Notes: a model not told the origin generated them from the sequence alone. A stretch of 64,000 nucleotides of DNA from Methanomassiliicoccaceae archaeon (GCA_963728405.1 CAVSJV010000005.1:1-64000); one strand, 5' to 3'; positions 50,829 through 59,738 are shown, numbered from the stretch's first letter. Made by a program: numbers and translations.

Positions 50829-51719
50829 TCAGTATGCTAGGCCGTTGGCCTGGCAGGCCGAAATGACCGTGTTCTTCATGAGCATCACGATGGTCATGGG
50901 ACCGACTCCACCAGGGACGGGGGTGATGGCCGAGGCTTTTTCCTTGACCGCCTCGAAGTCCACGTCCCCTACCCAGCGGTAGCCCTTCTTGGCGGCAGGA
51001 TCGTCCACCCGGTTGGTTCCCACGTCGATCACTACTGCTCCGGGCTTGATCATGTCCGCGGTGATGAACTTCGGAGAACCTATGGCCGCGACCACAATAT
51101 CGGCCATCCGAGTGATGGCCGCCAGGTCCTTGGTCCGCGAATGGCAGACCGTGACCGTGGCGTTGGCGCCCTTCTTCTTCTGCATGAGGATGGCCGCCAC
51201 CGGCTTGCCGACGATGTTGCTGCGGCCGACGATGACGACGTGCTTTCCGTCCGGGTCGTTACCCGAGCGGACCAGCATCTCCTGTATGCCATGGGGGGTC
51301 GCTGGAAGGAACATGGGGTCGCCGATGAGCATCCGCCCCACGTTCATGGGGTGGAAGCCGTCAGCGTCCTTGGCCGGGTCGATGCGCACCAGCACCTTGT
51401 TCTCGTCGATGTGCTTGGGGAGCGGCAGCTGAACAAGGAAGCCGTGGATGCGGGGATCGGCGTTCAGCTCATCGACCACCGATAACAACCTCTCCTCCGT
51501 GGTGTCGATCGGCAACAGGATGGTCCTCGAGTAAAGGCCCAGCTCCTCGCAGGCCTTGCCTTTGTTGCGCACGTACTGCTGGGATGCTGGATCCTCGCCC
51601 ACCAGCACCACTGCCAGACCGGGAGTGATGCCCTTGCTCTTAAGCTCGGCGATCTTGACCCTGAGCTCTTGTCTTATCTGTTCGGCGACCTCGGGACCGC
51701 TGATGACCTTGGCGACCAT
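50829..51719 (-). CDS. folD: Bifunctional methylene-H4F dehydrogenase/methenyl-H4F cyclohydrolase
   Basis: VGEDPASQQYVRNK, VQLPLP, KDADGFHP, GRSNIVGKP, TPVPGGVGPMT. Confidence 0.95.
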   Translation of the reverse strand: MVAKVISGPEVAEQIRQELRVKIAELKSKGITPGLAVVLVGEDPASQQYVRNKGKACEELGLYSRTILLPIDTTEERLLSVVDELNADPRIHGFLVQLPLPKHIDENKVLVRIDPAKDADGFHPMNVGRMLIGDPMFLPATPHGIQEMLVRSGNDPDGKHVVIVGRSNIVGKPVAAILMQKKKGANATVTVCHSRTKDLAAITRMADIVVAAIGSPKFITADMIKPGAVVIDVGTNRVDDPAAKKGYRWVGDVDFEAVKEKASAITPVPGGVGPMTIVMLMKNTVISACQANGLAY

Positions 51720-51892
51720 GTTCAGAACCGTCCGGGAGTAGTGGTGAAAAGGGATTTAACATTGCCCTCGGCATCTTTTTATCACTCGTTACATGGATTC
51801 TGTTCTCGGGGAATTTGGAATGGCCAATTATCGTCATTGCGGATAGGTCATCGAGGCGAACGCGAACTTCTGCCCATTCCCCCTTCGGCCAT

Positions 51893-52230
51893 CATGTATG
51901 TCATGGTCGTGGGATTCGATTCGGGGCAGACCTCTTCCGCCGGCCTGAGCGCCGAGGAGACCCCCGGAGATGTGCGGACCATAACGGTGTAGGGGGTGAG
52001 CAACGAGGCAGGGCTTACCAATGTCTGGATCGAGCTTCAATCGCCCGGGAAGGGAGTGGCATGAAAGCGGGGTCGGCCTATCGTCGACGACCGATAGCTC
52101 CCAGGCAGGCTCCGCTCACTGCTGGATCACCTACCACGACCGGGACGGTGTGGGATGCTCATTACGGACGATTGGATGGCCGTGGCCTCAGTGAGCGGAC
52201 CTCTGGGCGATGGCCCTTGCCCCATAGGAT
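51893..52230 (+). pseudogene. Degenerate archaeal type IV pilin-like gene remnant
   Basis: AIMYVMVVGF resembles the end of a pilin N-terminal helix. Then ITV*GVSNEAGLTNV and a later WITYHDRDG..DW fragment; stops and frameshifts present. Confidence 0.35.
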
Positions 52231-52335
52231 CTGAGGCATCTGCCGACCGGAGGGACCATCGCCCGCATCGATGCGAACCTACTCTAGGTCCACGAACTGT
52301 TTTTTAGTGGATTTGCCTTTCCAAGAGGGAGTAGA

Positions 52336-57719: not shown

Positions 57720-58123
57720 CCGGACCTAGTATCGCCCTTTTTTGCTGTACCAATGCCCGTGCGGCCCTGTCACCGGCAGGCGGGGATGAGGAGCGATCGC
57801 CCGACATCTCCATCATCGAGCTACCCTGTTCCGGTCGCATTGACGAGGTAACGATCATCAAAGCATTGCGCAACGGGGCCTGGGTGGTCATGGTCGTAGG
57901 CTGCCTGGAAGGCAACTGCAAGTACGGCGCGGGCAACTACCAGGCCTGGAGGCGGGTGGAGGAAGCGCGCTCCCTGCTCCAGCAGCTGGGCGTGGACCCC
58001 CAGCGGGTCCAGATGTTCAACGTGGCCTCGAACCAGCACTCCCGCCTTCTGAATGCCATGAATGAGATGAGGGAGCGGGCGCTCAAGCTGGGACCGATCA
58101 GGATACTGGAGGGTGACCGATGA
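57716..58123 (+). CDS. mvhD: MvhD-type [2Fe-2S] subunit
   Basis: FCC, LPCSGRID, GCLEGNCKY..GN. Confidence 0.9.
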   Translation: MTGPSIALFCCTNARAALSPAGGDEERSPDISIIELPCSGRIDEVTIIKALRNGAWVVMVVGCLEGNCKYGAGNYQAWRRVEEARSLLQQLGVDPQRVQMFNVASNQHSRLLNAMNEMRERALKLGPIRILEGDR

Positions 58124-58824
58124 TAATCGCGGAGCAGAAGGACCTGGGGCAGATCGTCAAGATGCTGGAGGGGCAGAAGAGGGTCCTGGTCGCAGGATGC
58201 CGTTCCTGCGTGGCGATTTGCCTGGCTGGTGGAGAGCGGGAAGTATCGACCCTGGCGGAGGCCCTCCGTCTGCATGCAACCATCGAAGGACGGGACCTGG
58301 ACGTGGCCGAAGTGACCCTGGAACGTCAGTGCGAGAAGGAATGGGTCAGGGAGATGGAACCCCTGATGCGCGATCGCGATATCGTCCTGTCCCTGGCCTG
58401 TGGGGTAGGGGCCCAGGTGGTTCAAGAGATGTATCCTACAGTGAGGGTAGTGCCCGGGCTCAACACCTCCAACATGGGAGCGCCCGAGGAACAGGGCATC
58501 TATCTGGAGAAATGCGGAGGATGCGGAGATTGCGTGCTTCACCTTACCGGGGGCATCTGCCCGGTGGCCCGCTGCTCCAAGTCGTTGATGAACGGCCCTT
58601 GTGGGGGCGCTCAGAACGGCAAATGCGAGGTGAGCCCCGAAACCCCCTGTGGTTGGGAGCAGATATATCGCAGCCTGGAAAGGCTGGGCCGGTTGGACCT
58701 GTTGGAGGAGAACATCCCACCCAAGAACTGGCTGCCCTCCCGCTCCGGGGGAGTGCGCCGGATCGTCCGCCGCTCGGCGGTCCAACGGCCCGAGGAGAAG
58801 AACTCCAGGGAGGGGAACAGATGA
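58120..58824 (+). CDS. metV: Methylene-H4F reductase small Fe-S subunit
   Basis: GCRSC..C..GG, RQCEKE, LACGVG, CGGCGDC...GGICPVARCSKSLMNGPCGG...CEV...CGW. Confidence 0.88.
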   Translation: MIIAEQKDLGQIVKMLEGQKRVLVAGCRSCVAICLAGGEREVSTLAEALRLHATIEGRDLDVAEVTLERQCEKEWVREMEPLMRDRDIVLSLACGVGAQVVQEMYPTVRVVPGLNTSNMGAPEEQGIYLEKCGGCGDCVLHLTGGICPVARCSKSLMNGPCGGAQNGKCEVSPETPCGWEQIYRSLERLGRLDLLEENIPPKNWLPSRSGGVRRIVRRSAVQRPEEKNSREGNR

Positions 58825-59738
58825 GATCCCAAAGCAACCTGGAGAAGGTCCTCGAGGGTGGGCACTTCGCGGTGACCGCGGAGATAGGCCCCCCGAAGTC
58901 AGCCTGTGCCGAAGGGGTGAGGAAGAAGGTCCGCGCCCTGAAGGGGTGTGCCGATGCCCTCAACCTGACCGACAATCAGACCGCCATCGTCCGCCTATCG
59001 AGCTTAGCGTCCGGGGTGGCCTGCCTGCAGGAGGGCGCCGAGCCGGTCATGCAGATGACCTGCCGCGACCGCAACCGTATCGCCATGCAGTCCGATCTTC
59101 TCGGTGCGGCCGCCCTGGGGATCAAGAACGTGCTGTGCATCTCGGGGGACCACCAGGTCTTCGGCAATCAGAGGGAGGCCAAGAACGTCTACGATCTTGA
59201 CCCCATCCAGCAGCTCATGGTATTCCGCCAGATGCGCGACGAGGGCAAGGTGTGGGGTGGAGATGTCCTGGAGGAGCGTCCCATGGTGTATCTCGGGGCT
59301 GCGGCCAACCCCTTTGCTGATCCGTTCGAGTTCCGGGTGACCCGGTTGGCCAAGAAGGTCAAGGCCGGAGCGGACTTCATCCAGACCCAGGCAGTGTTCG
59401 ATCTGGACCGCTTCGAGCGATTCATGACCCTGGTGCGAGAGAGAGGGCTGGACGAGAAGGTCCACATACTCGCCGGGGTAGTGCCCCTGCGCTCGGCCAA
59501 TGCCGCGAGGTACATGAAGACCAAGGTCTCCGGAATGAGCGTACCAGATGAACTGGTGGAGCGCATGAAGGGGGCCCAGGACCCCAAGAAGGAGGGGATC
59601 CGGATCTGCGTGGAGACGATCGACCGGCTGAGATCCATCAAGGGCGTCCATGGCGTACATATCATGGCCATTGGGTGGGAGGAGGTCGTCCCCTCGATCG
59701 TGGAACAGAGCAGCCTCCTGCCCAGGTCGGAGATATGA
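58821..59738 (+). CDS. metF: Methylene-H4F reductase flavin subunit
   Basis: TAEIGPPK, NLTDNQ, QMTCRDRNRIAMQSDLLGA, SGDH, KKVKAGADFIQTQ, GVHIMA; ATGA overlap with metV. Confidence 0.93.
   Translation: MRSQSNLEKVLEGGHFAVTAEIGPPKSACAEGVRKKVRALKGCADALNLTDNQTAIVRLSSLASGVACLQEGAEPVMQMTCRDRNRIAMQSDLLGAAALGIKNVLCISGDHQVFGNQREAKNVYDLDPIQQLMVFRQMRDEGKVWGGDVLEERPMVYLGAAANPFADPFEFRVTRLAKKVKAGADFIQTQAVFDLDRFERFMTLVRERGLDEKVHILAGVVPLRSANAARYMKTKVSGMSVPDELVERMKGAQDPKKEGIRICVETIDRLRSIKGVHGVHIMAIGWEEVVPSIVEQSSLLPRSEI

Follow-up and report, generated by a model that had tools for sequence, protein, structure and literature searches.

Does the presence of HdrA-type genes next to those for a methylene-tetrahydrofolate reductase (MTHFR) mean that the reductase bifurcates electrons, and in which direction would such an enzyme run in a methanogen? 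Both questions are raised by a 64,000-nucleotide stretch of DNA from a Methanomassiliicoccaceae archaeon (GCA_963728405.1, CAVSJV010000005.1:1-64000; hereafter, the window), in which positions 50829-59738 carry folD, fhs and a gene for a DUF3786 protein together with the row hdrA-like 1 (hdrA1), hdrA-like 2 (hdrA2), mvhD, metV and metF. A first-pass annotation, made from the sequence alone, read this cluster as the tetrahydrofolate (H4F) methyl branch of a methanogen lacking the tetrahydromethanopterin (H4MPT) pathway, which could oxidise methyl groups to formate or, in reverse, feed acetyl-CoA synthesis via a flavin-bifurcating MTHFR. Here, we lean towards a different view, namely, that the region would mainly be an anabolic folate one-carbon (C1) hub, in which MetVF would be served by a linear wire without bifurcation.

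The paired HdrA-like proteins of the MetVF operon

The five plus-strand genes hdrA1-hdrA2-mvhD-metV-metF are joined by ATGA overlaps at 4/4 junctions, with GGAGG located 7-8 nt upstream at each, and can thus be read as one translationally coupled unit. The start of metF, the sole MTHFR match in the genome, was placed at 58821, and not later, by alignment with orthologues and by its ATGA overlap. In MvhD, cysteines C11, C38, C63 and C68 are invariant in 21 orthologues; MetV shows 13 invariant cysteines, with a mean column identity of 76% (18 orthologues). No relative of MetV was found among solved structures, and a prediction of the MvhD/MetV complex, which scored 0.24 vs. a mark of 0.32, was used neither for nor against the association of the two proteins.

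Judged by alignment, the two HdrA-like proteins make up a complementary tandem pair, each matching different parts of solved HdrA. HdrA1 comprises an FAD-binding, thioredoxin-reductase (TrxR)-like core with the cluster motif CVGSRD...YCSxxCC and, additionally, a C-x6-C-x2-C-x2-C motif. The alignment of its intact orthologue from locus L002 with HdrA of the MvhADG-HdrABC complex (5ODC_A) covers residues 145-224 and 345-567 (E = 2.6e-36), the intervening residues 225-344, which form the inserted ferredoxin domain, being reduced to about 45 residues. The same trimmed protein aligns end to end (residues 1-327 to 1-335, E = 1.7e-28) with the 349-aa chain 6TJR_A, entitled in its entry a fumarate reductase/succinate dehydrogenase flavoprotein domain protein, which we take to be sHdrA of Hyphomicrobium denitrificans. 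The two share the same minimal core of FAD and one cluster, although 6TJR belongs to another system with other partners and no MvhD/MetVF context, and the identity is low, so that function is compared by analogy. The motifs CVGSRD...C[ST]xxCC recur in 19/20 other loci; in the frameshifted HdrA1 of the window (see below), the CC motif was scored and CVGSRD is readable in the other frame piece. Within the family of the window (f1), HdrA1 is 328-342 aa long and contains no ferredoxin motif in 12/12 loci.

HdrA2 consists of a degenerate Rossmann/TrxR-like body and a C-terminal 2x[4Fe-4S] ferredoxin domain (residues 293-350). It aligns with residues 418-625 of HdrA 8RVV_A (E = 2.4e-20), and the C[ST]xxCC motif is missing from it in 21/21 loci. 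In the family of the window, HdrA2 is about 330-375 aa long and begins right at the Rossmann motif, with hdrA1 overlapping the start of its gene. The N-terminal cluster-binding domain of HdrA is absent from both HdrA1 and HdrA2 of this lineage, and so is the inserted 2x[4Fe-4S] ferredoxin domain from its MetVF-linked pair. The GxGxxA stretch and basic residues at the N-terminus of HdrA2 were considered as an NADPH site and dropped, these residues not being conserved among orthologues.

The pairs of other families of the order are fuller. In families f3, f4 and f6, HdrA1 is about 400 aa long and aligns with 5ODC_A residues 143-562, which cover the FAD domain and the inserted ferredoxin one (E = 3.7e-75), while HdrA2, of 446-577 aa, aligns with HdrA residues 6-173 and 384-647, the latter match corresponding to the distal part together with the ferredoxin domain at the C-terminus; the N-terminal cluster domain (HdrA residues 6-173) is kept, for instance, in the 562-aa HdrA2 of family f4. 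Among 65 loci, 43 have the full form of both genes, 14 are trimmed in both and 8 in HdrA1 only. The MetV+MetF tree comprised 64 rows, that is, 63 loci and the window (L061 and L119 were left out, the latter having metF off the locus). Its root was set with 20 rows whose MetV identity is 50-57%; of these, 15 are labelled Thermoplasmata/Thermoplasmatota and none Methanomassiliicoccales. In this tree, the doubly trimmed forms make up one clade (Shimodaira-Hasegawa-like approximate likelihood ratio test, SH-aLRT, 92) nested among the full forms, and three changes in total account for the distribution of full and trimmed forms; the double loss of the N-terminal and inserted ferredoxin domains happened once.

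The same genome encodes a second pair, of 408 and 537 aa, upstream of mvhD-mvhG-mvhA on contig C7, in which both domains are kept. This Mvh operon, hdrA1'-hdrA2'-mvhD-mvhG-mvhA (C7:300204-306247), is arranged in the same way as the MetVF operon, so that MetVF sits where the hydrogenase sits. Further HdrA-type genes were observed on two other contigs. The tandem pair at C2:142754-148761, the third of the genome, is flanked by a FrhB/FdhB-like protein and two genes for MvhD, whereas at C6:21311-22480 one protein of 390 aa unites a region like the N-terminus of HdrA with a 2x[4Fe-4S] domain and MvhD.

How does this anatomy relate to the systems already described? As in MvhADG-HdrABC (5ODC, 8RVU/8RVV), the FAD core with the CVGSRD...CC cluster is found in HdrA1, and the C-terminal 2x[4Fe-4S] ferredoxin domain, which adjoins MvhD, in HdrA2; unlike that complex, MetVF takes the place of MvhAG, and the ferredoxin branch is absent in the lineage of the window. 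Tandem HdrA proteins with complementary domains are an accepted concept, and the heterodimer logic of the present pair is that of the pairs of anaerobic methanotrophic (ANME) archaea (PMC9012536; this and the other papers cited by accession are drawn upon for their accessible sections). In MetFV-HdrABC-MvhD, the presumably bifurcating, NADH-dependent reductase known from Moorella thermoacetica (Mock et al. 2014, via PMC6085437 and PMC9012536), metF, metV, mvhD and HdrA-type genes are likewise adjacent, and the HdrA part, likewise, comprises two complementary units, which are fused in Moorella and separate genes here (PMC9012536). Unlike in Moorella, so far as the published descriptions allow comparison, there is no hdrBC in the cluster or on its contig, and neither the N-terminal nor the inserted ferredoxin domain is present in this lineage. 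A search of literature accessible without subscription turned up no account of the HdrA pair of the cluster, be it as a tandem or as a trimmed one. The tandem, lineage-trimmed HdrA anatomy thus appears to be a modest new addition to a cluster that is itself ordinary and largely published.

Distribution of the cluster and its C1 context

In a sample of 41 genomes of the order Methanomassiliicoccales, partial matches to the 8.9-kb region were found in 41/41, and MTHFR in 35/41, one per genome; it was not found in the remaining six, which comprise all 3 sampled members of one family and three others, one of them only 67% complete. Nine reference proteins were used to map 23 loci of the order, the own locus of the window included. 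The conserved arrangement is folD (leftward), fhs (rightward), the genes for DUF3786 and a polysaccharide-deacetylase (NodB) family protein (both leftward), and then hdrA1, hdrA2, mvhD, metV and metF (all rightward). The five-gene operon is complete in 18/23 of these loci; in three others the locus is cut by fetch limits, in a fourth it is broken off by a contig end, and the fifth (genome G027) has metF without metV, mvhD or hdrA, this variant locus containing only folD, fhs, the deacetylase-like gene and metF. The MetV alignment was also used to scan a genome collection, which brought up 312 relatives; from these, 80 loci were kept, all on Thermoplasmatota-type contigs, and no loci of Moorella or other bacteria were among these 80. 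Here, hdrA1-hdrA2-mvhD-metV are contiguous in 65/80 loci, 13 of the other 15 being cut by contig ends and two containing metV-metF but no Hdr part; in the latter two (L110 and L128), hdrA and mvhD are lacking although upstream sequence is present. Since the same order recurs in 18/23 and 65/80 loci, the clustering is not due to chance.

The closest relatives fall in Methanomassiliicoccus and Methanomassiliicoccaceae. In 16 loci of other, sister Thermoplasmata, fhs is followed by hdrA1 directly, without the DUF3786 and deacetylase genes in between, so that these two genes can be seen as an insertion typical of Methanomassiliicoccales. The cluster is common to most Methanomassiliicoccales and to sister Thermoplasmata, and is not special to the present organism. 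Two loci on contigs labelled 'bacterium' (L129 and L131) have duplicated metV-metF and hdrA1-hdrA2-mvhD sets and are placed within the outgroup clade of the tree, beside two Thermoplasmata rows; their binning or labelling may be wrong.

Much of this setting had been published for the order. The C1 pathway based on tetrahydrofolate (THF) was described as complete in Methanomassiliicoccales, with formate dehydrogenase missing, and MtrAH was proposed as a methyl-H4F:coenzyme M (CoM) methyltransferase, so that methanol could be disproportionated to methane and formate, thermodynamics included, with the link between NAD(P)H and ferredoxin left open (PMC6147122). An oxidative, purine-supplying role was proposed by Lang et al. 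2015, as cited in PMC6147122; both purine/C1 supply and methyl oxidation to formate are thus proposals shared with the published pathway. Across 243 genomes of the order, the H4F branch was reported as a route that connects formate with acetyl-CoA (PMC10804542), and the order was credited with the Wood-Ljungdahl pathway and MesB only (PMC7857596). The enzymes found here, and the lack of a formate dehydrogenase match, are the same as in PMC6147122 and PMC10804542, the accessible sections of which contain no account of the hdrA1-hdrA2-mvhD-metV-metF operon, of its domain make-up or of how it is trimmed. In PMC6147122, other members of the order are said to lack only metF; in our sample, MTHFR is present in 35/41 genomes and missing from all 3 of one family. 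The MetFV-MvhD-HdrABC homologue of Methanomassiliicoccus intestinalis, the same kind of locus from the same family as the window, was called the sole archaeal one among complete genomes, was read as a bacterial transfer, and was rated putatively bifurcating (PMC6085437). So far as its accessible text goes, HdrABC was there assumed to come from elsewhere in the genome and the HdrA domains were not examined; the loci of the same family studied here are trimmed.

The assembly, 93.75% complete, contains mcrA, as befits a methanogen, and, in keeping with the first-pass annotation, shows no match to Mch (PF02289) or Ftr (PF01913) of the H4MPT pathway, both of which were matched in control genomes. 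The annotation likewise stands in that its H4F methyl-branch genes are clustered, in that similar ideas were already in print for the order (PMC6147122, PMC6085437, PMC10804542), and in that enzymes by which methyl-H4F could be formed or consumed, on which its reading hinged, are encoded. An AcsE-type methyl-H4F:corrinoid/Fe-S protein methyltransferase (C5:66005-66841; NF005719, 294 bits, cut-off 259) is located 6.3 kb downstream of the cluster and is followed on the same contig by PurH (C5:67297-68931, 709 bits), AcsV (C5:74087-76058, frameshifted, in two pieces), a weak match to the MesB-like core methionine synthase (C5:77819-78850; 29.6 bits, far below the cut-off) and, at C5 about 78.9-84.2 kb, a CooC-like ATPase, AcsC, AcsD and a bacterial-type AcsB, of which AcsC/D/B were assigned via open reading frames (ORFs) matching Pfam-scanned syntenic genes of a relative. 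The CooC, AcsV and AcsC/D/B stretch thus lies 15-24 kb downstream of the cluster; a CdhC match was obtained at C5:82705-83172, and CooS at C5:133844-135505 (E = 5.5e-167). On contig C17, MtaA/CmuA-like, MtrA-like (168 bits, cut-off 161) and MtrH-like (235 bits, cut-off 271) genes stand side by side. GlyA, DHPS and MvhD-MvhG-MvhA are encoded elsewhere in the genome. The parts of an H4F-based Wood-Ljungdahl pathway are hence present (Fhs, FolD, MetF, AcsE, the corrinoid/Fe-S protein (CoFeSP), acetyl-CoA synthase (ACS) and carbon monoxide dehydrogenase), so that the suggestion of acetyl-CoA feeding is well supported by gene content. Formate dehydrogenase, which the annotation had listed among the genes to look for, did not turn up: the alpha subunit (TIGR01591) had no match in the assembly. 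This result and the presence of MvhAG weaken the suggestion of the annotation that the dependence on H2 could be loosened.

As regards possible partners of HdrA, the CCG domain (HdrB/HdrD-like) gave 16 matches at 8 loci in the genome, none of them on contig C5, and no hdrBC was found in the cluster or on that contig. Nor was HdrBC seen in the 23 and 80 loci of relatives, which were mapped with nine or eleven query proteins not including HdrBC. Across the 41 genomes, CdhC was found in 37 and MtrH in 21. When compared with MTHFR (35/41) and CdhC (37/41), the latter count implies that most carriers have no obvious methyl route from CoM into H4F.

Proposed electron path, direction and competing readings

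From the above, we infer complex formation, the electron path, its donor and its direction as follows. Fhs and FolD would link formate, formyl-H4F and methylene-H4F. The five coupled genes would yield one enzyme composed of MetF (flavin and substrate site), MetV (Fe-S clusters), MvhD (the [2Fe-2S] adaptor) and the HdrA1/HdrA2 heterodimer, in which HdrA1 would provide one FAD and one [4Fe-4S] cluster, and HdrA2 the C-terminal 2x[4Fe-4S] domain; MetVF would dock through MvhD, in the place of the hydrogenase. In canonical HdrA, electrons of the flavin reach free ferredoxin by way of the cluster at the N-terminus and of the inserted ferredoxin domain (accessible sections of PMC9012536). With this ferredoxin branch lost, the complex would be linear and non-bifurcating: electrons from a low-potential partner at the HdrA1 cluster, either ferredoxin or an HdrC-like protein, would pass via FAD, the HdrA2 clusters, MvhD and MetV to MetF. 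Such a donor would drive the reaction chiefly towards methyl-H4F, which would be used by AcsE/CoFeSP/ACS for acetyl-CoA and by the MesB-like methionine synthase, while formyl- and methylene-H4F would go to PurH and GlyA. This direction fits the neighbouring consumers (AcsE, CoFeSP, ACS and the MesB-like gene) and also fits the spread of the cluster and of ACS (35 and 37/41), which exceeds that of MtrH (21/41).

Several points weigh against this scenario. The MtaA-like/MtrA/MtrH-like set could possibly load methyl groups of CoM or corrinoid proteins onto H4F, so that the flux would run to formate. On the donor side of the complex, the analysis revealed no site for NAD(P)H, no contact with ferredoxin and no HdrBC partner. 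The putative loss of bifurcation is deduced from domain absence at the sequence level, the C-x6-C-x2-C-x2-C motif kept in HdrA1 might bind an extra cluster, and other HdrA-type proteins, such as the fusion of an N-terminal domain, ferredoxin and MvhD on C6, could act in trans. Three genes of the cluster appear frameshifted in the present assembly, and no expression, labelling or enzyme data for the cluster were found in the accessible literature. For all that, the anabolic, linear scenario remains the one to which we give somewhat more credence than doubt.

Could the cluster, instead, serve catabolic methyl oxidation? According to the first-pass annotation and to the model in the accessible part of PMC6147122, where the scheme and its thermodynamics are set out, methyl groups of methanol or methylamines would enter H4F via the MtaA/MtrAH-like set, after which MetVF, FolD and Fhs would carry their oxidation as far as formate; the Fhs step would yield ATP, and the electrons would serve to reduce further methyl-CoM to methane, so that the dependence on H2 would be loosened. 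The genes required are at hand, the MtrA-like, MtrH-like and MtaA/CmuA-like ones together on C17 and every enzyme from methyl-H4F to formate, and the lack of a match to the alpha subunit of formate dehydrogenase implies that the oxidation would stop at formate. However, the cluster is present in 35/41 genomes and MtrH in just 21. The oxidation of methyl-H4F (about -200 mV) requires a higher-potential acceptor or an input of energy, whereas the trimmed complex has neither a visible NAD(P)H site nor a ferredoxin arm; besides, the MvhAG hydrogenase is present and the neighbours AcsE, ACS, PurH and the MesB-like gene are biosynthetic consumers. Furthermore, cultured Methanomassiliicoccus strains are described as H2-dependent. 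The whole pathway is, nevertheless, ascribed to them in PMC6147122, as far as its accessible text goes. We therefore consider catabolic methyl oxidation unlikely.

The second possibility, an MTHFR that would, in the manner of Moorella, bifurcate or confurcate electrons, and in which HdrBC or another partner encoded elsewhere would couple NAD(P)H, ferredoxin and methylene-H4F, seems to us no less doubtful. It draws on the identity of the subunit families with those of Moorella MetFV-HdrABC-MvhD (PMC6085437, PMC9012536) and on the listing of the M. intestinalis homologue as putatively bifurcating (PMC6085437, both papers in their accessible sections), as well as on the eight CCG-domain loci of the genome and on the full-form pairs of other families of the order, which keep all canonical HdrA domains. 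But the N-terminal domain and the inserted ferredoxin one are absent from the MetVF-linked pair of this genome and its clade and kept in the Mvh-linked pair; moreover, contig C5 carries no CCG-domain gene, and no NAD(P)H-binding element was identified. Given the missing domains and the lack of hdrBC in the cluster or on its contig, the flavin-bifurcating reductase of the first-pass annotation does not hold up well.

A third, quite improbable option follows from the two canonical arms that the trimmed HdrA1/HdrA2 pair appears to keep, namely, the cluster from which HdrBC is normally reached and, on the side of MvhD, the ferredoxin domain. The complex might then be a linear oxidoreductase that docks on an orphan HdrBC/HdrD-like protein and transfers electrons from methyl-H4F to the heterodisulfide of CoM and coenzyme B (CoM-S-S-CoB), the potential of which is about -140 mV, coupling methyl oxidation to methanogenesis. 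If true, methyl oxidation to formate would feed methanogenesis, enabling H2-independent methyl disproportionation in the Methanomassiliicoccus clade.

Gene calls, assembly quality and significance

The genes named by the first-pass annotation (folD, fhs, DUF3786, hdrA1, hdrA2, mvhD, metV and metF) were all recovered by Pfam profiles where it had placed them (Table 1), so that its inventory is real as far as it goes; five frameshifts and the deacetylase-like gene were overlooked.

Table 1. Genes of the cluster in the order of their positions in the window
Gene	Product	Position	Strand	Length	Profile matches and remarks
folD	methylene-H4F dehydrogenase/methenyl-H4F cyclohydrolase	50829..51719	-	296 aa	intact; PF02882 (1.6e-68), PF00763 (8.9e-43)
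fhs	formate-H4F ligase	52336..54020	+		PF01268 (4.6e-172); profile positions 2-369/556 in first frame
	DUF3786 protein	about 54024..54778	-		start uncertain; PF12654 (2.3e-38)
	polysaccharide-deacetylase (NodB) family protein	54682..55500	-	272 aa	PF01522 (1.7e-13)
hdrA1	HdrA-like 1	55614..56622	+		Pfam FAD Rossmann families, on first frame piece
hdrA2	HdrA-like 2	56619..57719	+		2x[4Fe-4S] Fer4 families, residues 293-350
mvhD	[2Fe-2S] adaptor subunit	57716..58123	+	135 aa	PF02662 (6.7e-33)
metV	iron-sulfur subunit of MetVF	58120..58824	+	234 aa	PF12225 (5.9e-36)
metF	methylene-H4F reductase	58821..59738	+	305 aa	PF02219 (2.6e-38)

The five frameshifts within 8.9 kb comprise two in fhs, two in the DUF3786 gene and one in hdrA1. 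Those of fhs, near 53445 and 53720, distribute the gene over three frames, with tblastn pieces q1-375, q370-464 and q461-560 against an intact 560-aa orthologue; those of the DUF3786 gene, near 54530 and 54097, similarly give three pieces in different frames, and that of hdrA1, near 56126-56137, gives two. In relatives, each of these genes is read in one open frame; for Fhs, 20/21 other loci that carry it gave one full-length high-scoring segment pair. No public sequencing runs were listed for positions 52300-59738. In a genome-wide frame test, the ORFs found in 400 kb of two relatives' genomes were compared with the entire assembly by tblastn; frame changes were found in 51/219 genes, 67 in 228,952 bp, on many contigs and in genes including some 92-94% identical to the copies of the relatives. 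The same procedure applied between two other genomes gave frame changes in 1/32 and 1/34 genes, so that the rate in the present assembly is about ten times higher. The five local changes compare with 2.6 expected in 8.9 kb (Poisson P = 0.12), which is not above the genome rate, and the amino-acid identity flanking each shift stays at 55-94%. Thus, the genome-wide frame changes, together with the low controls, indicate an indel-rich assembly and not a local decay of the pathway, and the frameshifts in fhs, the DUF3786 gene and hdrA1 are attributed to presumed sequencing errors. That the cluster is a decaying remnant, in which these frameshifts would be real and the pathway would be on its way to being lost, is suggested by five changes in 8.9 kb where relatives have intact genes, but is hardly credible against the genome-wide rate, the controls, the Poisson estimate and the identity preserved on both sides of each shift.

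With about one quarter of the genes showing frame errors, the assembly is unreliable for gene calls and unfit for pseudogene calls. Frame-changed stretches occur elsewhere in the window as well, e.g. at 16708-17635, 18471-19596, 32512-33976 and 46007-46945. It was also observed that contig C9 repeats part of C17 (C9:4000-12000 against C17:45000-52000), DHPS and a TfrB-like CCG protein included, with an identity of 98.7-99%; strain variation or duplication during assembly is the probable cause.

As for the remaining genes, FolD is 66-94% identical across 20 other loci, and the DUF3786 orthologues of relatives are intact and about 235-250 aa long. The deacetylase-like gene, located between the DUF3786 gene and hdrA1 and pointing away from the latter, was detected by tblastn in 21/21 other loci of the order that reach its position (L044 falls short of it). 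All NCBIfam matches of its product are sub-threshold, and a search of the ESM Atlas with this protein and with DUF3786 returned their own families and no functional lead; a deformylase-type activity of the deacetylase-like protein is only a guess. The folD-fhs spacer (51720-52335, 616 nt) aligns in part with the gene of a small zinc-ribbon protein that relatives carry at the same position, about 200 aa long in L002 and L003, for which no intact frame is found here, a deletion being apparent. A search of Rfam over 50500-60800 (E up to 1) gave one chance-level snoRNA match of 17 bits and no riboswitch in the spacer. Just 3' of metF, at 59881-60718 on the plus strand, there is an ORF whose product, about 279 aa long, contains a CxxC motif; it is conserved, with 78% identity, in the closest relative and is frameshifted in the present assembly.

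What, then, does the locus tell about the Methanomassiliicoccales? The cluster, being ordinary for the order and already published, by itself changes little, and gene names alone cannot show that Hdr-coupled means bifurcating. What the domain anatomy brings in is a MetVF reductase that would be wired to a two-gene HdrA heterodimer mirroring the own Mvh-Hdr operon of the organism, with the ferredoxin branch shed in one clade, the cultured genus Methanomassiliicoccus included. The full and trimmed forms thereby make up a natural enzyme pair for asking whether HdrA-linked MetVF reductases bifurcate, a pair that also bears on the electron donor of MetVF-type reductases in anaerobes.

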